A stretch of 8,791 bases of DNA from a virus. Its lineage: Duplodnaviria > Heunggongvirae > Uroviricota > Caudoviricetes. This document shows, in pieces, positions 1 through 8,791 of this stretch. Under the pieces are notes generated by a model. That model was not told where the DNA came from. It saw nothing but the letters and a program-made list of their open reading frames with translations, and searched no databases. The stretch covers positions 1-8,791 of the IMG/VR virus record IMGVR_UViG_2740892488_000005, one strand, 5' to 3'. The position numbers and the translations under genes were made by a program. Position 1 is the first letter of the stretch. Every line of letters begins with the position of its first letter.

Positions 1-46
1 ACTTGTGATAAATCCGAATGGTTTGGTCGCCGTTCGGGGTAACTGG

Positions 47-68
47 CCCGCCTTGTGCGGGTCTTTTT
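47..68 (+). terminator. Putative rho-independent terminator ending an upstream off-window transcript
   Basis: Hairpin CCCGC (47-51) / loop CTTGT / GCGGG (57-61) followed directly by TCTTTTT (62-68). A TAA at 40-42 could be the stop of a gene entering from the left. Confidence 0.45.
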
Positions 69-127
69 GCTATCTAAAGGGTGCCGGTTACGTTTCCGGC
101 GTCGTTATGTTTCCATTACGACCGTAC

Positions 128-200
128 AGGGCTGGTCAGGCCCGGGCTGGTCTTTCCTGTTTTGAGCTGGTCAGGCTCATGGTCAACGCTGGTCAGGCGT
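128..200 (-). repeat. Tandem array of three stem-loops with conserved 7-nt loop (TGGTCAG on plus, CUGACCA if transcribed leftward) and covarying 4-5 bp stems
   Basis: Loops at 133-139, 168-174 and 190-196. Stems GGGC/GCCC (129-132/140-143), TGAGC/GCTCA (163-167/175-179), ACGC/GCGT (186-189/197-200). Same element occurs inverted at 2191-2205 and 4615-4631. Confidence 0.6.
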
Positions 201-291
201 GGTACTTCCTCCGGTCTTTCCCTGGTGTCACGCTGCGGGTTTGGCCTCTCCTGTTGGGGACTCAGGCACAGCGATAAAACCTGGCTGTGTG

Positions 292-319
292 AAAAAATGG
301 CCCATCGTGCGGACTGGGC
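292..319 (-). terminator. Possible intrinsic terminator on the minus strand
   Basis: On the minus strand GCCCA / 10-nt loop / TGGGC (plus 300-304 pairs with 315-319), then C and a T6 run (plus A-run 292-297). Stem is short, so tentative. Confidence 0.3.
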
Positions 320-764
320 AAAGACTAAACACAGCAAATTGATGATGGGCGCCGGAATCGAACCGGGTAACGGGCAGGGAGTTCCCGTTAAACACCTGTT
401 CACCACAACCGGGAGCGCACTCCGCCATTTCAAAATTTAACGACAAAGCTCAAAGTTGAGTCGATGAAGTGCGCTCTCGTGTTGTAGCCAGGACTCTTCC
501 CTGGTGGTCACACCGTATCGCCTTGATGGTGAATCAATCGCTCATACCTGGCTGTGGCTTGCACATTCCGGCTACCTGCTATGGAGACAACGCGTTAAGG
601 CTCCGCTTCCATCCAGACCGCTTCGACACATGTGCCATATGCCGGTGAAGTCTTTCCCTCTGTCACCGTGTTGGCGCCGACGCGCAAAATTTGGTGCCGT
701 CTTTCCGGCTGTCAGAACGTGTTTCTGAACAACTGCCGCTGGGTAAGCGTTGTTGATGAAAGTG

Positions 765-820
765 ACTTTACAATTTGTATTTGTAATGGTCAATGTGTTT
801 TTAAAAAATAATTTGTAGTG
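765..820. promoter_or_regulatory. OL-like operator cluster downstream of the repressor gene
   Basis: AT-rich block with TTTGTA at 774-779, 780-785 and 812-817; palindrome TACAA-T-TTGTA at 769-779; 9-mer ATTTGTAAT (779-787) also present at 1372-1380 in the repressor/cro intergenic region. Confidence 0.4.
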
Positions 821-911
821 AGGGGCAAAAAAATATTCACTGTGTAAAGGTGTTTTTGTGTTAGGGGAAAGTTGCATGCCAGCAGCGGCTGGCCTGGAAA
901 TTTGAACTGAA

Positions 912-1304
912 CTATTTTGTCTGGTTTTTGGCTTCAAGTAGTTCTTTTAGCAGTAGATCGAAGTGCTCTCTTTTTTCTTTTAGCTCATTGATTAATTTAT
1001 TTTTTTCGCTCTCAGGCAGTCCTCTGAATAGTTGCAGTAGAGCCTGTTCTTGCGGGGTTAGTTCTTGATTGTAATTACCCGGGTGTAGTGTGGATTCATC
1101 CAAATATTCCCCTTCATTCATGAAGAAAAAATGAACAGGGTATCCGGTCACTTTTGCTAGCTTGTCTAATTTATCTTTTCTTGGAGTTACCCCATTACAC
1201 CATGCCTGAACTGATTGAGCCGTAACCCCAATATGGCGAGCTAACTCAGATTGAGACCAGCCTAAGTCTTTTAGAATCCGTTGTAGTCGGCTAGCAAAAG
1301 CCAT
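912..1304 (-). CDS. Prophage CI-like repressor, XRE-family HTH, 130 aa, with no LexA-like S24 peptidase domain
   Basis: ORF 912..1304 (-). N-terminal HTH signature (LGWSQSELARHIGVTAQSVQAW) and helical C-terminus; divergent from a cro-like gene across an operator-rich intergenic region. No Shine-Dalgarno within about 15 nt upstream of the ATG, so possibly a short-leader or leaderless mRNA. Confidence 0.8.
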   Translation of the reverse strand: MAFASRLQRILKDLGWSQSELARHIGVTAQSVQAWCNGVTPRKDKLDKLAKVTGYPVHFFFMNEGEYLDESTLHPGNYNQELTPQEQALLQLFRGLPESEKNKLINELKEKREHFDLLLKELLEAKNQTK

Positions 1305-1424
1305 GTTTTTCGTTTTTTGTGTTCATACCGTAAGGATACAAGGTTTAATTGTAGGGAGCATTGCAAATATAATTTGTAATTACAGTTATTGTTTGTAATG
1401 ATGACGCGGACACAAGGAGTCCAT
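1305..1424. promoter_or_regulatory. Divergent promoter/operator region between repressor and cro-like gene (OR-like)
   Basis: AT-rich 120 bp intergenic region with perfect 10-bp palindrome TGTAATTACA (1375-1384), further TTTGTA copies at 1373-1378 and 1392-1397, a TTGCAA -35-like hexamer at 1361-1366, and AAGGAG SD at 1414-1419. Confidence 0.55.
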
Positions 1425-1655
1425 ATGGATAAACAACTGCAAGACAAAATTCTTTCCGTAATGAGTCAATCCGAGTTAGGGCGGCGATTAGGGAAAAAAC
1501 CACAAACGGTAAGCCTCTGGTTCAAAGGACGGGTTCCCGGTGAAGAGGTTTTGCGCACATCTGAAGCTCTTGAATGGCGCGTGACCCCTCATGATCTTAG
1601 ACCGGATCTTTACCCAAACCCAGATGACAGCTTGCCTAAAACGGAAGCAGCTTAA
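1425..1655 (+). CDS. Cro/YdaS-like HTH regulator, 76 aa
   Basis: ATG at 1425 preceded by AAGGAG (1414-1419). The track ORF starts at 1389 but that ATG lies inside the operator repeats with no SD. HTH (SQSELGRRLGKKPQTVSLWF) and the C-terminal HDLRPDLY motif typical of Cro/YdaS-type prophage proteins. Confidence 0.75.
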   Translation: MDKQLQDKILSVMSQSELGRRLGKKPQTVSLWFKGRVPGEEVLRTSEALEWRVTPHDLRPDLYPNPDDSLPKTEAA

Positions 1656-1713
1656 CTGTTGGTGAGCCCCAAATCTGATTAAGCGTAATCAATTTTTAGC
1701 GACAGGAGACGCT

Positions 1714-2190
1714 ATGGAAAACCAAGAGGAATTACAAAAAGAGATTTTGACCTGGGCGGCAAGGGCAGGGCAGGAACTCGTCACGATTGAAATCTGCCGG
1801 GCCTGGTTCAGTCAGGGACGCAATGATGAGTTGAGACTACATGAATTTGAGGACGCGGACGGCAACGTGGACTGGAGAGCCATCAACAACAATCGGCAGA
1901 AAATCTTTCGCTGGTTACGTGGCGAGACAACGGCGGCGCGCCGAAAAACTCAGGTGCTGGCCAGTGTGATGAAAGCCGTGCTACCCGCAGAACGGCGGGC
2001 ACGTCTGGAGTCGCCGGGCGATCCCGTTTTGCTGGCAACGCTGGCGGCAAAAGAAGGGGTGGAAGCGATTAACGCTGTACATCTCCACTTCGCGCCAGAG
2101 TTAACTATTCAGGAAATTGACGAAGCAATAGCGGCGCTGGTAGCGACGCGAGGAGCAGTGATACGCACTGCGCAAGACCACCATGCATGA
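1714..2190 (+). CDS. YdaT-like (CII-analog) prophage regulator, 158 aa
   Basis: ORF 1714..2190 with AGGAG at 1703-1707. Contains the motif NNRQKIFRWLRGETTAARRK, which I recognise from Rac-prophage YdaT-family proteins; sits immediately after the Cro/YdaS-like gene as in Rac-type immunity regions. Confidence 0.65.
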   Translation: MENQEELQKEILTWAARAGQELVTIEICRAWFSQGRNDELRLHEFEDADGNVDWRAINNNRQKIFRWLRGETTAARRKTQVLASVMKAVLPAERRARLESPGDPVLLATLAAKEGVEAINAVHLHFAPELTIQEIDEAIAALVATRGAVIRTAQDHHA

Positions 2191-2229
2191 GCGCCTGACC
2201 AGCGTTTAACTTATACCGAGGAAAGACCG
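2190..2229 (+). promoter_or_regulatory. Stem-loop plus conserved SD leader cassette (copy A)
   Basis: Directly after the TGA at 2188-2190: stem GCGC/GCGT (2191-2194/2202-2205) with loop CTGACCA (2195-2201), 9-nt spacer, then ACCGAGGAAAGACC (2215-2228) and ATG at 2230. Same architecture at 4615-4651. Confidence 0.55.
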
Positions 2230-2388
2230 ATGTTAAGACATATTGACCGCATTACCTGGCGTAACGGCTGGCACCTGAATGGACGCCCGGCACATGTTGC
2301 AGAGATCCGCCCCATATTCGATGGCCGCGTCGCAGCTGCACGTTCTGTATGGGAAAAGTACGAAGAAGAAAAAAGCGAAACTGCGTGA
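2230..2388 (+). CDS. Hypothetical small protein, 52 aa (below the ORF-track size cutoff)
   Basis: ATG 2230 to TGA 2386-2388, translating MLRHIDRITWRNGWHLNGRPAHVAEIRPIFDGRVAARSVWEKYEEEKSETA. Supported by the strong SD (GAGGA) and by the identical 14-nt leader that precedes the 136-aa gene at 4652. Confidence 0.45.
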   Translation: MLRHIDRITWRNGWHLNGRPAHVAEIRPIFDGRVAAARSVWEKYEEEKSETA

Positions 2389-2451
2389 GCAAAATCTCTC
2401 TGGCGCTGCCTATGAGGCTGGCTGTCGCGTTCTCTCAGAGGCTTTGGGCAT

Positions 2452-3042
2452 ATGAACATCCTCCCGTTACTTGATAGACCCATAGCCTTCCAGAGAAGTT
2501 TTATCCGTCTTGAAATGGGCGTGACTGCCGCATTGTTTCTGTCGCAGTTGACGTACTGGACAAACAGAACAACTGACGACGGCTGGGTATATAAAACCCA
2601 GGATGAGTGGGAAGAGGAAACAGGGCTTTCACGATACGAGCAGGAGGGCGCGCGCAAAAAACTACGTGGTCTCGGCGTCTTGCTGGAACGTAAACAGGGC
2701 TTGCCTGCCAGGCTGTACTACAAAATCGATAATGATGTGTTGTGCCAGCTACTTACGTCCGCATACAAGGATGCGGAAAAACCACATACAGGTGAGGGGA
2801 AAACCACCAGGCCTGTACGTGGAAAACCAACAAACATTCTTACAGAGAATACTACAGAGATTATTACTGATGGTGAATCGGCTGACGCCGACACCCAACA
2901 ACCTGCCGACCAGAGAATAAATTATCAGGTGATACTCGATACCTATCACGAGATTTTGCCAGAGATGCCACCAGTGAAAATCCTCACTGACGGCAGAAAA
3001 AAAACACCTTCGCACTTTCTGGAAAAAATTCAATTTCAATGA
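2452..3042 (+). CDS. Phage replication initiation protein (replisome-organiser type, winged-helix N-terminal domain); reading frame probably disrupted near its 3' end
   Basis: ORF 2452..3042 (196 aa); N-terminal region resembles phage O-like/DnaD-like initiator winged-helix domains and lies directly upstream of a DnaB-family helicase. An adjacent frame stays open from 2978 to 3208 and ends overlapping the helicase start, suggesting a +1 frame change at A8 (2997-3004) or A6 (3023-3028). Confidence 0.6.
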   Translation: MNILPLLDRPIAFQRSFIRLEMGVTAALFLSQLTYWTNRTTDDGWVYKTQDEWEEETGLSRYEQEGARKKLRGLGVLLERKQGLPARLYYKIDNDVLCQLLTSAYKDAEKPHTGEGKTTRPVRGKPTNILTENTTEIITDGESADADTQQPADQRINYQVILDTYHEILPEMPPVKILTDGRKKTPSHFLEKIQFQ

Positions 3043-3197
3043 GTCCCGTTGGCGGGCCTATCTGGAATTTATCGGTGGCAATTGTCGCTGGATGCTGGAG
3101 GACAGGCCAAATGGCAGGGGAGGATTCTGGCGGCGTAAAAATCTTGATTATCTGATTACCGAACGCTGCTATGTTTCGGTCAAGGAAGAACGCGCAA

Positions 3198-4613
3198 ATG
3201 ATAAATAACGCGATTGCACTGTACAGCGTTGACGCAGAACAGGCTGTTCTGGGCTGTCTGATGCTGAATACCGACCACGACAGAACCAATGCGGTATTTG
3301 CGTTACTGAAACCGGAAACGTTTTATATCAATGCGCATCAGGTTATCTACCGGGAGATCAAAGGATTATTTCAAGCTGATAAACCAACTGACCTGATAAC
3401 ACTGACCGAACTGATGGAATCGAAGGGGCTGTATGAGCGCGTGGGGGGATTCGCATACCTGGCTGAAATGAGTAAGGCGGCGATTCCGGCCTCAATGGTC
3501 AACTACGCGAAAATTGTACGTGAAAAAGCCATTCTTCGTTATGCCGTGGAAAAGTTGAATTCTTGTCTGGAGATTATGATCCAGCCTGCAGATATGACTG
3601 CTACTGACAGGATCACCGCCGTTCAGCAAGTGATTGGGCAGGTGGCCGAACATTCCCGTACCGGGCATAAGGGCGGTTTGCGTCCGGCAAGTGAAGTCGT
3701 CGATGACTGGATAGATGACCTTGAGCGCCGTTTCAATGATCCAGCACATGCAGCCGGACTAACGCTCGGAATCGAAAGCCTTGATCGCTTAATGGCACCA
3801 AAGCAGGCGTTAAGAGGTTCATTGGTCGTTATTGGTGCCCGGCCAAAAATGGGCAAGACAGCCGCGTTTAATAAAATTGCGGTGCATTTTGCTCTGAATC
3901 ATCGTTTGCCGACGCTGGTATTTAGCCTGGAAATGACTGACAGAAGTCTCATTGAACGCATGGTTGCGCAGGAAGCAAAGGTCAATTCGGAGATTTTTTA
4001 TCTTGGCCCTAACGATGAATCTGAATTGAGTCTCGCAATAGCAAAGGCGGGGGAGATTGCCGAATCCAACATGATGATTGACAGCACGGCAGGTGTAACC
4101 CTTGCGCATATTGTCGCTGAATGTCGAAAAGTTAAACGGATGCGTGGCTCGGTTGGCCTGGTGGCAATTGACTATTTGACGCTGATGAAGACCGAATCGG
4201 CAGAGCGTAGGGATATTGCGTATGGCGATATCACAACCGGTTTGAAGAACCTGGCAAAAGAGCTGGATTGTGTTGTGGTCCTGCTGACGCAACTCAACCG
4301 AAAGCTTGAAGAACGTGCCGATAAGCGGCCTAACCCGAGCGACAGTAAAGATACCGGGCAGATCGAACAAGATTGCGATGTCTGGATTGGCCTCTATCGT
4401 GATGCTGTTTATAACGAAAATGCCGACCCAAATCTCATGGAAATGTTGCTACGTCTGAACCGCGAAGGACCATCGGGAACAGCCTATGCCCTGATGAAAA
4501 ATGGCTCAGTTATTGATATCAGCGATGAGGAGGTTTATCGCCTTACCAACGACCGCTCAGAAAAAAATAAACGTTATTCCCGTAGCGATAATTCTCGCAC
4601 AAATGAATTTTAA
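3198..4613 (+). CDS. DnaB-family replicative DNA helicase (phage-encoded, P22 gp12-like)
   Basis: Track ORF 3171..4613; preferred start is ATG 3198 with AAGGAAG SD at 3183-3189. DnaB N-terminal motif (SVDAEQAVLGCLML), Walker A (GARPKMGKTA), SLEM motif, and LTQLNRKLEERADKRPNPSDSKDTGQIEQDCDVWIGLYRD matching the DnaB H3/H4 region. Confidence 0.9.
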   Translation: MINNAIALYSVDAEQAVLGCLMLNTDHDRTNAVFALLKPETFYINAHQVIYREIKGLFQADKPTDLITLTELMESKGLYERVGGFAYLAEMSKAAIPASMVNYAKIVREKAILRYAVEKLNSCLEIMIQPADMTATDRITAVQQVIGQVAEHSRTGHKGGLRPASEVVDDWIDDLERRFNDPAHAAGLTLGIESLDRLMAPKQALRGSLVVIGARPKMGKTAAFNKIAVHFALNHRLPTLVFSLEMTDRSLIERMVAQEAKVNSEIFYLGPNDESELSLAIAKAGEIAESNMMIDSTAGVTLAHIVAECRKVKRMRGSVGLVAIDYLTLMKTESAERRDIAYGDITTGLKNLAKELDCVVVLLTQLNRKLEERADKRPNPSDSKDTGQIEQDCDVWIGLYRDAVYNENADPNLMEMLLRLNREGPSGTAYALMKNGSVIDISDEEVYRLTNDRSEKNKRYSRSDNSRTNEF

Positions 4614-4614
4614 C

Positions 4615-4651
4615 CACGCCTGACCAGCGTGAAATAACCGAGGAAAGACCA
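4615..4651 (+). promoter_or_regulatory. Stem-loop plus conserved SD leader cassette (copy B)
   Basis: Directly after the helicase TAA (4611-4613): stem CACGC/GCGTG (4615-4619/4627-4631) with loop CTGACCA (4620-4626), 5-nt spacer, then ACCGAGGAAAGACC (4637-4650) and ATG at 4652. Confidence 0.55.
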
Positions 4652-5062
4652 ATGACCACCACTCCAGGCAAATTAGAGTACCCGTCGGACAAAGGACACA
4701 TAGACGACGGTAAAAACTATCTCGACGTCATTTTGTGGAATATGAACGTCGGGCCACGTGCGCGCACTCGCGCGGTTTTTGTGCCAAGACCTAAAGCAGG
4801 CAATTTTTCAACCCCTGCTAAGCCTGCCCGTCAGGCATCCGTAGCCGCAGCGCCAGCAGTGAAACGTAAGGGCAAAACGCACACCGGGATCGCGATTCGC
4901 AGAAATGGTGAGCGGCAAGTGAAACTCCACGAAACAGCGACAACCTGGTGTGCCTCACCGCATGAAACTTACGACAAGATAACCGGGCAGCGCATTGGCG
5001 CGCCTGGTCGCTGCCGCCTGCTGCTGAGTTCCATCACTCCGATAGCAAAGAAAGGGGCGTGA
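4652..5062 (+). CDS. Hypothetical protein, 136 aa
   Basis: ORF 4652..5062 with the conserved SD leader; enterobacterial-style codon usage (CTG, GCG, CCG rich); no competing ORF on either strand. No family recognised. Confidence 0.6.
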   Translation: MTTTPGKLEYPSDKGHIDDGKNYLDVILWNMNVGPRARTRAVFVPRPKAGNFSTPAKPARQASVAAAPAVKRKGKTHTGIAIRRNGERQVKLHETATTWCASPHETYDKITGQRIGAPGRCRLLLSSITPIAKKGA

Positions 5063-5063
5063 T

Positions 5064-5300
5064 ATGGCCGGGCAATCAGATTACCTGCCGCCCGGCTTAC
5101 CACACAACCGCGCCAAATGGCCCCAGGAATACCAGCTTAAAGAGCACTACGACATGCGAGCGGCGGCGCTGATCCGCCAACTCTTTGAGAAACGTATTCC
5201 GAGGGGAAGCGTGATTGAGCAAATCGGAATGACGCCAGATACGTACCGGGAATTTTTCAGAGAGCGTCTGAACTACTGGAGAGGGGTGATGGAACAATGA
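5064..5300 (+). CDS. Hypothetical protein, 78 aa
   Basis: ORF 5064..5300, starting 1 nt after the previous stop; purine-rich AAAGGGG upstream. Its stop overlaps the next start in an ATGA arrangement. Confidence 0.55.
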   Translation: MAGQSDYLPPGLPHNRAKWPQEYQLKEHYDMRAAALIRQLFEKRIPRGSVIEQIGMTPDTYREFFRERLNYWRGVMEQ

Positions 5301-5608
5301 AATACAAACGGTGGGTGCGTGCGGAAGTCGTAATCATCAAACAATGTGCGGGCAGCATGACAGTTGAACGTATAGGGCAGCTTATTGGCAGAACCGGTGC
5401 AGCGGTACGCACAAAAGCGCGCGAGCTGAAAATCTGTATGTATCTGCGGGGTAATTATCACCAGTCAGTGAAATACCTCCAGGAAGATATCGAGCTGGCA
5501 AGGGAATTACATCAGTCGGGTATTAATCGCCAGGATATCGCAGAAAAACTCGAAATGCCGATCGGAGCGGTGAATCAGTTTGTTTATTTTGAGCGGAGAA
5601 TTTCATGA
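5297..5608 (+). CDS. Hypothetical DNA-binding protein with two HTH-like segments, 103 aa
   Basis: ORF 5297..5608; ATGA overlap with the upstream gene. Two helix-turn-helix-like stretches (MTVERIGQLIGRTGAAVRTKAREL and INRQDIAEKLEMPIGAVNQFV); the HTH assignment is inferred from sequence pattern only. Confidence 0.5.
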   Translation: MKYKRWVRAEVVIIKQCAGSMTVERIGQLIGRTGAAVRTKARELKICMYLRGNYHQSVKYLQEDIELARELHQSGINRQDIAEKLEMPIGAVNQFVYFERRIS

Positions 5609-5829
5609 AAGAACTTTTTCTTGCATTTGTGCCCCGGTTTATTAATGACCAGATCGCACTGACTGATAATGGTGAACAATATGAAATTGCCTGCAGCATG
5701 GTGGATGTGAATCCTGGCGAACGGTATGACGCGATGTGTGACCTGAAAATATTTACCTGGCTGGGTTGGGCTATTCCGTGTGGAGAACCAACCAATATTC
5801 GTCCGTTTGAGAGCAGGGAGGCTGTATGA
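5605..5829 (+). CDS. Hypothetical protein, 74 aa
   Basis: ORF 5605..5829; ATGA overlap with the upstream stop, part of the coupled small-gene chain. Confidence 0.5.
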   Translation: MKELFLAFVPRFINDQIALTDNGEQYEIACSMVDVNPGERYDAMCDLKIFTWLGWAIPCGEPTNIRPFESREAV

Positions 5830-5942
5830 GTGAATTGAAAATACGTCGCAAGGCAATAGCACGCGTTAAAAATCTATTACCAGTGCCTGTCAAATATCGT
5901 TTTTGTGGTGGGAATGTACGGATTGGTACGGATGTATGGTGA
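5826..5942 (+). CDS. Possible small ORF, 38 aa
   Basis: ATG 5826 overlapping the upstream stop (ATGA), stop TGA at 5940-5942, translating MSELKIRRKAIARVKNLLPVPVKYRFCGGNVRIGTDVW. Only positional evidence. Confidence 0.3.
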   Translation: MSELKIRRKAIARVKNLLPVPVKYRFCGGNVRIGTDVW

Positions 5943-6016
5943 TTGCGGAGTGACGTAAAACGAATCGTTGTGGGTGTAATATCGTCAATATCATTGGTTT
6001 CCCGGAGGGAAAGGAC

Positions 6017-6238
6017 ATGTTTGGCGATAAACTGGAGTTACCACGGAACGGGCGGATAGTGCTCTATATTTCAGATTACAAAGTAACCCGGGCTGAGGTG
6101 TTGGAACCGGAAAAACATCTGGTCACGTTACCGGACATTATTGAGTTGTATAAGCGGGTCGGATATGTGGACTTGCATCGCGATGATGTTCCCGTTGAGT
6201 GTATGGAATGTGAACACCGGAGGTTTGAAGTTGATTGA
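6017..6238 (+). CDS. Hypothetical protein, 73 aa
   Basis: ORF 6017..6238 preceded by GGAGGGAAAGG; followed about 90 nt downstream by a terminator-like hairpin plus T7. Confidence 0.5.
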   Translation: MFGDKLELPRNGRIVLYISDYKVTRAEVLEPEKHLVTLPDIIELYKRVGYVDLHRDDVPVECMECEHRRFEVD

Positions 6239-6329
6239 ATTGACTTAGAAAAAGTCCGGGGCTATAGTTTCCGCGCAGCCGCAAAATCGGTTGCCGGGAT
6301 TGGCGTCCCGGATATCTAAGTGACGCATA

Positions 6330-6349
6330 GCCGCGTTAGCGGTTTTTTT
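6330..6349 (+). terminator. Putative intrinsic terminator closing the small-gene operon
   Basis: GCCGC (6330-6334) / loop GTTA / GCGG (6339-6342) followed by T7 (6343-6349). Short stem, moderate confidence. Confidence 0.45.
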
Positions 6350-6448
6350 ATGTGTTAGGCACGGCCACATTCGCATTATGGTGGGCTGTGTGGGGGCTTC
6401 TGTGGAAGCGCCGGGTTCACTTAGCCGGTTACGCCAACCCTGCACAGC

Positions 6449-6481
6449 TCACCACCAGATGATTGGCGTCGCTGGTGGTGA
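6449..6481. promoter_or_regulatory. Perfect 10-bp inverted repeat immediately upstream of the antirepressor start
   Basis: TCACCACCAG (6449-6458), 13-nt spacer ATGATTGGCGTCG, CTGGTGGTGA (6472-6481); right arm contains the Chi octamer GCTGGTGG (6471-6478). Antirepressor SD AAGTGAGG at 6495-6502 and ATG at 6511. Confidence 0.4.
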
Positions 6482-6510
6482 TGAAAAAAACACTAAGTGA
6501 GGCCACTGCG

Positions 6511-7300
6511 ATGACAGTCCAAATATCTGCGGAATCCCTTTCTCCGCTACATCATAACCAACTTCCCGTCATCACTACTGAATTGCTTGCCAGTTTGTAT
6601 GGCACGGAAGTAAATGGTATCCAGCAAAACTTCAAGCGCAACATCGCCAGATTTGTCGTAGGAAAGCATTTTTTTTAAGCTGGAAGGTAATGAATTACGC
6701 GACTTCAAAAACAGACTGACAGATAGTCAGTCAGTTGCTAAACATACCCGATCCCTCATTCTCTGGACAGAACGCGGCGCAGCTCGCCATGCCAAAATGC
6801 TGGAAACAGAACAGGCCTGGGAAGTTTTCGAAAAGCTGGAAGATTGTTATTTTAGCCAGCGTCCAGAGAGGCGGAGTACAACTACCGATGACCGTACTCC
6901 CTTGCGTGATGCCGTTAATATACTGGTCGGCAAGAAAGGCATGATGTATCCCGATGCCTACACCATGATTCATCAACGCTTCGCCGTCTCTCACATAGAA
7001 CAACTGTCACAGACGCAAATGTTAGAGGCGATTGAATACATCCACTGCCTGCTACTCGATGAAAATCACCCAACCATTCCAGATTTTTCTTTTATCACCA
7101 CTATCAAAAATGGAAAAGTGACCGGGATGCGCCATGTTGCCAAAGGCGAACATCTGATGACCTTTGACGCTTTCAAAGAGATCGCTGAGCGGGCAGGGTA
7201 TCTGGTGATCCACAGCGACAATCTGCGAAGTATGACACTGGATAAATTGATGGTAATGGGGAAAAAGTCGGCTATATCCGTTGCTAATTCAGCATTTTGA
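6511..7300 (+). pseudogene. Phage antirepressor-type regulatory protein, interrupted by a frameshift in a T8 run
   Basis: N-terminal part in frame 1 (6511-6678, ends GKHFF-stop) and C-terminal part in frame 2 (track ORF 6797..7300, open from 6677). Removing one T from T8 (6669-6676) gives a continuous ~262-aa protein with the conserved stretch GKHFFKLEGNELRDFKN...SLILWTERGAARHAKMLETEQAWEVFEKLEDCYF, which I recognise as antirepressor-like. Confidence 0.65.
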
Positions 7301-7427
7301 CAGGTTGTTTGGGGCGGAAATACTCTATTTGCGCTTAAAAAGGTATTTGACCACGACCAGCACGAGACCGAATACCTCTGTCAAAGTACCGCCCATATAA
7401 AACAGTTACATATGCACTTGATGACTA

Positions 7428-7459
7428 AGCTGGCACCAGGTTAACACCTGGCGCCAGCT
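7428..7459. other. Strong near-perfect hairpin between convergent genes (14-bp stem, one mismatch, 4-nt loop)
   Basis: AGCTGGCACCAGGT (7428-7441) / TAAC / ACCTGGCGCCAGCT (7446-7459). No U-tract on either strand, so not a canonical intrinsic terminator. Confidence 0.4.
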
Positions 7460-7589
7460 TGAAGGAGACTTCAGTTATTGGTTTCTGAGGAAAGCGATTC
7501 TTGAAAGGGTCATTTGCGTCTGGCAGTCGACCATTTTCTTGACTTCAGCATCTGTTCCCTGCATTGAAACTTTACCGCACATAGCATCC

Positions 7590-8294
7590 TTAGTTTTGAT
7601 CCACTGACGCTGAGAAGGCAGCAAATCTTTTTTTCTTCGCCGGGGTTAACTTGCTCCAGACGGTACTCAAATCAGAGTCGGCATTCGCAAATGCCATTCG
7701 GGACTGATCAAGGTTGTCAGCTTTTTGCGGCTGAAGTTGTGCCTGTCTCTCTATTTGCTTCTCCGCCTCATACTTAGCCTGTTCTTGCGCCCTGAGTTGC
7801 ACCTGTTGTTCCGCTTCAATTTGACTCTGTTGGGCATCCTTAGCCTGCTGGATTTTCTGCTGCTCAACGATCGGGGTGATAATGGAAAGCGATGTCAGTA
7901 AAGCGGCGCCCACTGATATCGGATTATCAGTAGAGGTTTTTACAAAAACGTTTTTCTGATCGTCGGTCGCCTGCACGGTGTAGGTGATACGTTTTGAAAA
8001 GGCGTTTGCGTTGTTCTCCAAAAACAGGCTTTCCATTTGCTTATCGAGATTACGATTAAAATTCTTTCTGTAAGCATCTGAAAGCTGGACGTACTCGTTC
8101 GCAGATAGAGTCATCGTCACGGTCCCTTCACAAGTTTTCATTGTGCTGCCCGTGTCACTTGATGTTGTGGAGATCTCAGAGATGGCTAGTTTGATCTTGT
8201 CCAGTGTGCTTCGTTTGGTCTGATTAGTGACATCAGGGTATTTATCGACCTGTTCAGAGAGTCCTTCATAAGCAGATTTTTTTAATAAATCCAT
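7590..8294 (-). CDS. Hypothetical protein, 234 aa: N-terminal domain, central hydrophobic helix, Gln/Glu-rich coiled-coil C-terminal region
   Basis: ORF 7590..8294 (-). Hydrophobic stretch ISVGAALLTSLSIITPIV followed by a heptad-like Q/E/A-rich segment. Frame stays open upstream of the ATG until a stop at plus 8358-8360, inside the IS end, so the native 5' end or promoter may have been displaced by the IS insertion. Confidence 0.55.
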   Translation of the reverse strand: MDLLKKSAYEGLSEQVDKYPDVTNQTKRSTLDKIKLAISEISTTSSDTGSTMKTCEGTVTMTLSANEYVQLSDAYRKNFNRNLDKQMESLFLENNANAFSKRITYTVQATDDQKNVFVKTSTDNPISVGAALLTSLSIITPIVEQQKIQQAKDAQQSQIEAEQQVQLRAQEQAKYEAEKQIERQAQLQPQKADNLDQSRMAFANADSDLSTVWSKLTPAKKKRFAAFSASVDQN

Positions 8295-8420
8295 GAGAGC
8301 TGACTGGGTTATTTCCGAAGAACAACCGATCTCATCTTTTTTGTTATCTGAAGTGGTTTACTGAATTTGGCCACCTGAACAGAGGTGATATGCTCACCTC
8401 AGAACAACACAGGTGCCATA

Positions 8421-8721
8421 ATGAAAAAAAGAAATTTCAGCGCAGAGTTTAAACGCGAATCCGCTCAACTGGTCGTTGACCAGAATTACACCGTGGCAGA
8501 TGCAGCCAGCGCTATGGATGTCGGCCTTTCCACAATGACGCGATGGGTGAAACAATTACGTGATGAGCGGCAGGGAAAACACCAAAAGCCTCCCCTATTA
8601 CCCCGGAACAAATTGAAATCCGTGAGCTCAGGAAAAAGCTACAACGTATTGAAATGGAAAATGAAATATTAAAAAGGCTACCGCGCTCTTGATGTCAGAC
8701 TCCCTGAACAGTTCTCGATAA
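8421..8721 (+). pseudogene. IS3-family transposase OrfA (HTH plus leucine-zipper regulator), apparently frameshifted twice
   Basis: [53 protein letters not shown] in frame 3 (from 8421); expected continuation [27 protein letters not shown] in frame 2 from 8597; expected C-terminus [14 protein letters not shown] in frame 1 ending at TAA 8719-8721. Frame changes coincide with an A4 run (8576-8579) and the A5G slippery-site region (8671-8676). Confidence 0.65.
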
Positions 8722-8791
8722 TCGGGAAACTCAGGGCGCGTTATCCTGTGGCCACTCTCTGCCATGTGTTCGGGGTCCATCGCAGCAGCTA
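8676..8791 (+). CDS. IS3-family transposase OrfB, N-terminal part (3' end beyond the window)
   Basis: Frame 3 open from 8676 to the window end with a typical OrfB N-terminus ([16 protein letters not shown]). Confidence 0.6.

Follow-up and report, generated by a model that had tools for sequence, protein, structure and literature searches.

An ORF6N-domain antirepressor gene split by one extra T in an ST131-type prophage sequence: a probable homopolymer-length miscall

The antirepressor locus and its two reading frames

The window analysed here is a stretch of 8,791 nucleotides of tailed-phage DNA (IMG/VR record IMGVR_UViG_2740892488_000005, positions 1 to 8,791). Its right-hand part carries an antirepressor-like gene whose reading frame is interrupted at a run of T's. 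The coding features of the locus are listed below, the reference being the prophage of Escherichia coli JJ1886.

6511-7300, plus strand: whole antirepressor-like ORF6N gene, 789 nt and 262 aa when the run is read as T7
6669-6676, plus strand: T8 homopolymer; the reference has T7, and the extra T shifts the frame
6511-6678, plus strand: N-terminal fragment of 55 aa, MTVQ...GKHFF followed by TAA, comprising the first half of the ORF6N domain
6677-7300, plus strand: frame-2 continuation of the antirepressor-like gene, with the remaining ORF6N domain and the C-terminal part

The eight T's at 6669-6676 stand in the context ...GGA AAG CAT TTT TTT TAA G..., and the last T of the run is also the first base of a TAA stop codon (6676-6678). 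Frame 1, whether followed from 6463 or from the reference start ATG 6511, which is the position of the JJ1886 CDS start, reads ...ARFVVGKHFF and ends at this stop. Frame 2 reads KLEGNELRDFKN... from 6677 and meets its first stop only at 7298-7300; it is open already from 6662, the preceding stop being a TAG at 6659-6661. The first in-frame start of frame 2 is ATG 6797, which gives a 167-aa ORF, and no Shine-Dalgarno sequence is visible before it. The preliminary description of the run, of the GKHFF-stop and of the open frame from 6677 was correct in all these details. It had also proposed that deletion of one T would restore an antirepressor-like protein of about 262 aa, and the continuous product is indeed exactly 262 aa long, coincides with a public protein and is matched from end to end by the family phrog_4792.

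Another in-frame ATG lies at 6481 (MKKTLSEATA-MTVQ...), 30 nt upstream of the reference start, and is taken as the start by some annotations (65-aa and 272-aa calls). The stretch 6481-6513 has an A7 run at 6484-6490 and lies inside the C4 target region described below.

An isrK / C4 RNA module upstream of the gene

The region preceding the antirepressor gene contains the following elements.

6275-6349, plus strand: isrK sRNA, ending in a terminator hairpin plus T7 (Rfam, 80.4 bits against a gathering score of 50)
6262-6314, plus strand: c4-a1b1 target element, overlapping isrK (Rfam, 52.9 bits against a gathering score of 46.7)
6374-6459, plus strand: C4-type antisense RNA, directly upstream of the antirepressor gene (Rfam, 75.2 bits against a gathering score of 45)
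6378-6500, plus strand: 40-aa ORF overlapping the C4 match, in the position of Gifsy-1 orf45 (ORF list)
6493-6500, plus strand: CUAAGUGA, C4-complementary site (complementarity search)

All three upstream matches found in the Rfam search exceed their gathering scores. The complementarity search revealed that CUAAGUGA (6493-6500) pairs over 8 nt with the C4 loop sequence UCACUUAG (6417-6424), and this site overlaps the Shine-Dalgarno sequence (AAGUGAGG) of ATG 6511. A further C4 loop is complementary, over 7 nt, to UUGGCGU at 6463-6469 and at 6300-6306. In the immI region of phage P1, the c4 antisense RNA controls ant. The window resembles this region in the presence of a C4 RNA and of a1/b1 targets (Rfam), and in the complementarity of the C4 loops to sites ahead of the gene that include the ribosome-binding site. 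The likeness extends to the protein, as the Ant of the P1-like phage RCS47 is 48.8% identical over residues 1-120 of the restored protein, whereas the C-terminal part of the window protein is unrelated to P1 Ant. The window also differs from immI in that no icd-like gene was identified, and the regulation proposed for the window is read from its sequence alone.

The second system to which the module can be compared is the Gifsy-1 locus of Salmonella, isrK-orf45-anrP (Hershko-Shalev et al. 2016, PMC4825925). In both, isrK and its terminator are followed by a short ORF, of 40 aa in the window and 45 aa in Gifsy-1, and then by an antirepressor-like gene; this likeness is one of gene order. Two differences separate both loci. 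Upstream of isrK, Gifsy-1 carries antQ, whereas in the JJ1886 reference prophage the antiterminator Q gene is located a long way downstream. In addition, no isrJ-like RNA was found downstream in the window, a search of 7250-7650 under permissive Rfam thresholds returning only a chance snoRNA match (E = 0.058) below its gathering score. A tRNA scan of the window gave no hit. Overall, the module displays the defining elements of an RNA-controlled antirepressor arrangement of the P1 immI / Gifsy-1 isrK type, and can be assigned to this type as a predicted control module.

Just past the antirepressor gene, a 78-base intergenic stretch (7326-7403) has an 89.7% identical copy at positions 12368-12445 of the reference prophage; it matches no Rfam family.

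Identity of the restored protein

The restored protein matches the Pfam ORF6N domain (PF10543) with 77.6 bits against a gathering cut-off of 27.8, its residues 14-96 covering positions 5-86 of the 86 in the profile, and the 55-aa fragment alone covers profile positions 4-45 only. Since the domain spans residues 14-96 and the break falls at 55/56, the interruption lies within one domain and not between two genes. The profile phrog_4792, described as 'anti-repressor', aligns to residues 1-262 (profile 6-268 of 268, E = 2.7e-163), with profile positions 102-268 falling on the frame-2 part. The 262-aa sequence is an exact public protein, 'ORF6N domain-containing protein [Escherichia]', present on at least 1000 contigs. 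In JJ1886, an intact 789-nt CDS is annotated at this place (WP_001531776.1, P423_RS10700) with 0 nucleotide substitutions relative to the window, so that the repaired window gene is identical to it at all 789 bases. Related phage proteins, which bear the annotation antirepressor, Ant or antB and include those of Stx phages and of the P1-like phage RCS47, align uninterrupted over the junction, and all the phage homologues compared are single ORFs.

The proposal that a single gene has been split by one extra T is thus upheld by the position of the break inside the ORF6N domain and by the intact CDS of JJ1886. Comparison of orthologues across the junction, which had been suggested as a check, returned one contiguous protein in orthologues and distant homologues; a two-gene arrangement was not seen. 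The gene probably encodes an ORF6N-domain phage antirepressor, a well-supported assignment whose label derives from the annotation of its relatives and from the immI-like context. The gene belongs to a known kind, as does its RNA control module, and both are already described, in a prophage common in ST131.

Run-length differences along the window

The alignment of window positions 1-8348 with the prophage of E. coli JJ1886 (ST131) contains 0 substitutions and 7 single-base gaps, all of which are homopolymer length changes. The remaining part, 8349-8791, is the left end of the IS3-family element ISEc52 (starting TGAAGTGG), inserted in the LprI-family gene. Compared with the nearest copy of the element, this part has two homopolymer deletions and 0 substitutions. 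The differences are listed as the run in the reference, or in the nearest ISEc52 copy, followed by the run in the window.

64-68, no strand: T4 to T5, intergenic
349-350: C3 to C2 (JJ1886 alignment)
1313-1318: T5 to T6 (JJ1886 alignment)
2369-2374, plus strand: A5 to A6, 74-aa hypothetical protein shortened to 52 aa
2997-3004, plus strand: A7 to A8, replication protein of 251 aa shortened to 196 aa
6669-6676, plus strand: T7 to T8, frameshift in the antirepressor gene
7628-7634, minus strand: T6 to T7, frameshift in the LprI-family gene
8576-8579, plus strand: A5 to A4 (nearest ISEc52 copy), breaks orfA
8671-8675, plus strand: A6 to A5 (nearest ISEc52 copy), in the A-rich motif AAAAAAG

Altogether, nine run-length differences and 0 substitutions are found in ~8.8 kb. 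Six of the nine changes hit reading frames: four fall in prophage genes, one in orfA of the IS element and one in its A-rich motif, at which IS3-family elements undergo a programmed frameshift of their own. The ISEc52 part of the window has no perfect match among copies in 5,426 genomes, the ISEc52/LprI junction region (8200-8791) is covered to at least 80% in none of the complete E. coli genomes, and the 234-aa product of 7590-8294 is absent from the public protein record. The gene neighbourhood is that of the JJ1886 prophage, with the same HTH repressor, YdaS/YdaT-like genes, replication protein, DnaB helicase and LprI-family gene; the window departs from it in having T8 and not T7, in the other homopolymer changes and in the ISEc52 copy in the LprI-family gene.

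A set of nine indels without any substitution does not correspond to a normal mutation spectrum and bears the signature of homopolymer miscalling. If the share of indels among mutations is assumed not to exceed 30%, mismatch-repair mutants included, nine in a row would have, by our own estimate, a chance of 0.3^9, or ~2e-5. A mismatch-repair-deficient hypermutator history was also considered and was rejected as the main explanation, since the nine indels come with no substitution. We infer that the nine discrepancies are technical rather than biological.

Run length in other genomes and in public assemblies

The length of the run was assessed with an 80-base probe centred on it, which was covered in full by 423 complete RefSeq E. 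coli genomes. The T8 version identical to the window was found in 0 of these 423 genomes; among the matches listed, which represent 85 of the 423, all 85 have 79 bases, with T7, under an intact ORF6N CDS. A pattern search in which 5-11 bases were allowed between the flanks recovered 7 metagenome (JGI) and 10 IMG/VR contigs, with T7 in 17/17 and T8 in none. In five diverged homologues GKH[FY][FY] is likewise contiguous, but its codons are mixed and there is no T run (CAC TAC TTC AAA, CAT TTC TTT AAG, CAC TTT TTC AAA and others). This conservation of the peptide without the run indicates that the run is not under selection.

Broken copies do exist in public assemblies. The 55-aa T8 fragment is present on 16-19 Logan contigs, as compared with the at least 1000 contigs bearing the restored protein, and its 65-aa version occurs in one NCBI assembly. 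Relative to JJ1886, most of the T8 Logan contigs have only +1 insertions, located in runs of 5-8 bases and numbering up to 24 per 15 kb, at sites that are shared across Logan samples (reference positions 4618, 6181, 10634, 11745 and 14845). Three of them break off precisely within the T run, suggesting conflict between reads at this point. A second set, made up of chromosome-scale assemblies, displays 31-74 deletions per 16.5 kb and T5 or T6 at the site. The occurrence of T8 in one dataset and of T5 or T6 in another implies that miscounts of the run go both ways, according to the dataset. As for the other frameshifts of the window, its A8 at 2997 is also found in other error-prone assemblies, and its A6 at 2369 (52-aa product of 2230-2388) only in two unrelated Logan contigs in which the ORF6N gene is intact; each of these variants occurs singly in unrelated assemblies. 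T5, T6 and T8 are almost confined to assemblies filled with homopolymer errors, with GCA_052188915.1 (DBJVAM010000013.1) as the one clean exception, where T8 is the sole difference from JJ1886 in 16.9 kb. T8 is likewise the sole difference in the 6.1 kb of the Logan contig SRR34973783. Both may be genuine T8 isolates.

Origin of the extra T

The extra T very probably represents a homopolymer-length miscall introduced in sequencing or assembly, the true run being T7. The organism would then have T7 and an intact 262-aa ORF6N antirepressor gene with no split, lying behind the isrK / C4 antisense-RNA module of a lambdoid prophage common in E. coli ST131. Against a miscall stand GCA_052188915.1 and SRR34973783, in which T8 is the lone difference, and in some isolates the T7 to T8 change may be a real mutation. 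For the window, a true replication-slippage mutation from T7 to T8 is unlikely. It would turn the antirepressor into a pseudogene with a 55-aa half-ORF6N stub and the rest untranslated, as ATG 6797 lacks a visible Shine-Dalgarno sequence and the C-terminal part would not be made alone from it. Such an event is favoured by the two lone-difference assemblies and by the nature of a 7-base run, at which indels readily arise, and the IS insertion in the neighbouring gene of the window's prophage fits a decaying prophage. The mutation would have to coincide, however, with eight other homopolymer-only differences and 0 substitutions in 8.8 kb, and its absence from the 423 complete genomes and from the 17 metagenome and viral contigs also argues against it. 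If it were real, the pseudogene would remove one route of prophage derepression.

Much less probable still is a switch in which T7/T8 phase variation toggles the antirepressor, or in which T8 is decoded by transcriptional slippage or by a +1 ribosomal shift. A +1 shift at UUU UAA G can be envisaged, with tRNA-Phe re-pairing with the UUU one base on and AAG being read next to yield exactly GKHFFKLEG. The +1 frameshift site of prfB, CUU UGA C, consists of a slippery codon plus a stop, and the window site shares this design in that a slippery Phe codon precedes a stop. Runs of 8-9 A or T provoke RNA-polymerase slippage, and transcriptional slippage at A/T runs occurs in Thermus dnaX, Shigella mxiE and IS elements; with eight T's, the run in the window could provoke it too. 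A stable hairpin is predicted downstream (~6714-6732, fold z = -3.3), and T8 recurs among public assemblies. This recurrence, however, tracks assemblies rich in other homopolymer errors. The two-frame arrangement is not conserved in complete genomes (0/423), other contigs (0/17) or phage homologues, which are single ORFs, and the slippery run is missing from the five diverged homologues. The prfB shift is stimulated by a motif at 3-nt spacing, whereas the AGGA of the window lies 9 nt before the last UUU codon. The hairpin seems an unlikely frameshift stimulator, because it starts ~37 nt downstream, farther away than stimulators usually lie, and T7 genomes have it as well. Contrary to prfB and the known slippage sites, the site is conserved in no orthologue and apparently has no correctly spaced stimulator, and the unshifted T7 is the norm. 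The variation in length expected of a phase-variable locus was not found in the complete genomes either, with T7 in 85/85 among the matches listed and T8 in 0/423. It is very unlikely that T8 is a real circulating allele in some ST131-type prophages, of which GCA_052188915.1 may be an example, with the antirepressor made at a low, tunable level via slippage or a +1 shift at UUU UAA G; such an allele would add a leaky translational gate to the isrK/C4 RNA control of prophage derepression.

The preliminary description had offered three causes for the split. The homopolymer sequencing error is the one favoured here, the real inactivating mutation is retained as a minor possibility, and the slippage-prone switch found no support and is in large part refuted by the comparisons. 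Should T8 be confirmed, the question would be a modest one, namely whether loss of the antirepressor or its leaky decoding alters prophage inducibility. If the preferred reading, a miscalled run, is correct, the window would carry approximately one homopolymer error per kilobase, and its source assembly is probably the same throughout. Apparent frameshifts, pseudogenes and split genes in that assembly should hence be distrusted before polishing with accurate reads.

A CRISPR spacer matching the antirepressor gene

The 80-base probe also returned 33 matches at 99% identity or more. They were considered as possible T8 genomes and rejected, as they are 33-base matches to a CRISPR spacer and not to the gene. 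The type I-E spacer CGCAACATCGCCAGATTTGTCGTAGGAAAGCA, carried by 33 complete E. coli genomes, is identical to window 6637-6668, inside the antirepressor gene. The protospacer is preceded by a canonical AAG motif at 6634-6636, and the array context of the spacer, checked in one genome, has the repeat GAGTTCCCCGCGCCAGCGGGGATAAACCG. The protospacer stops a single base short of the T run, so that CRISPR targeting would be unchanged by the extra T.
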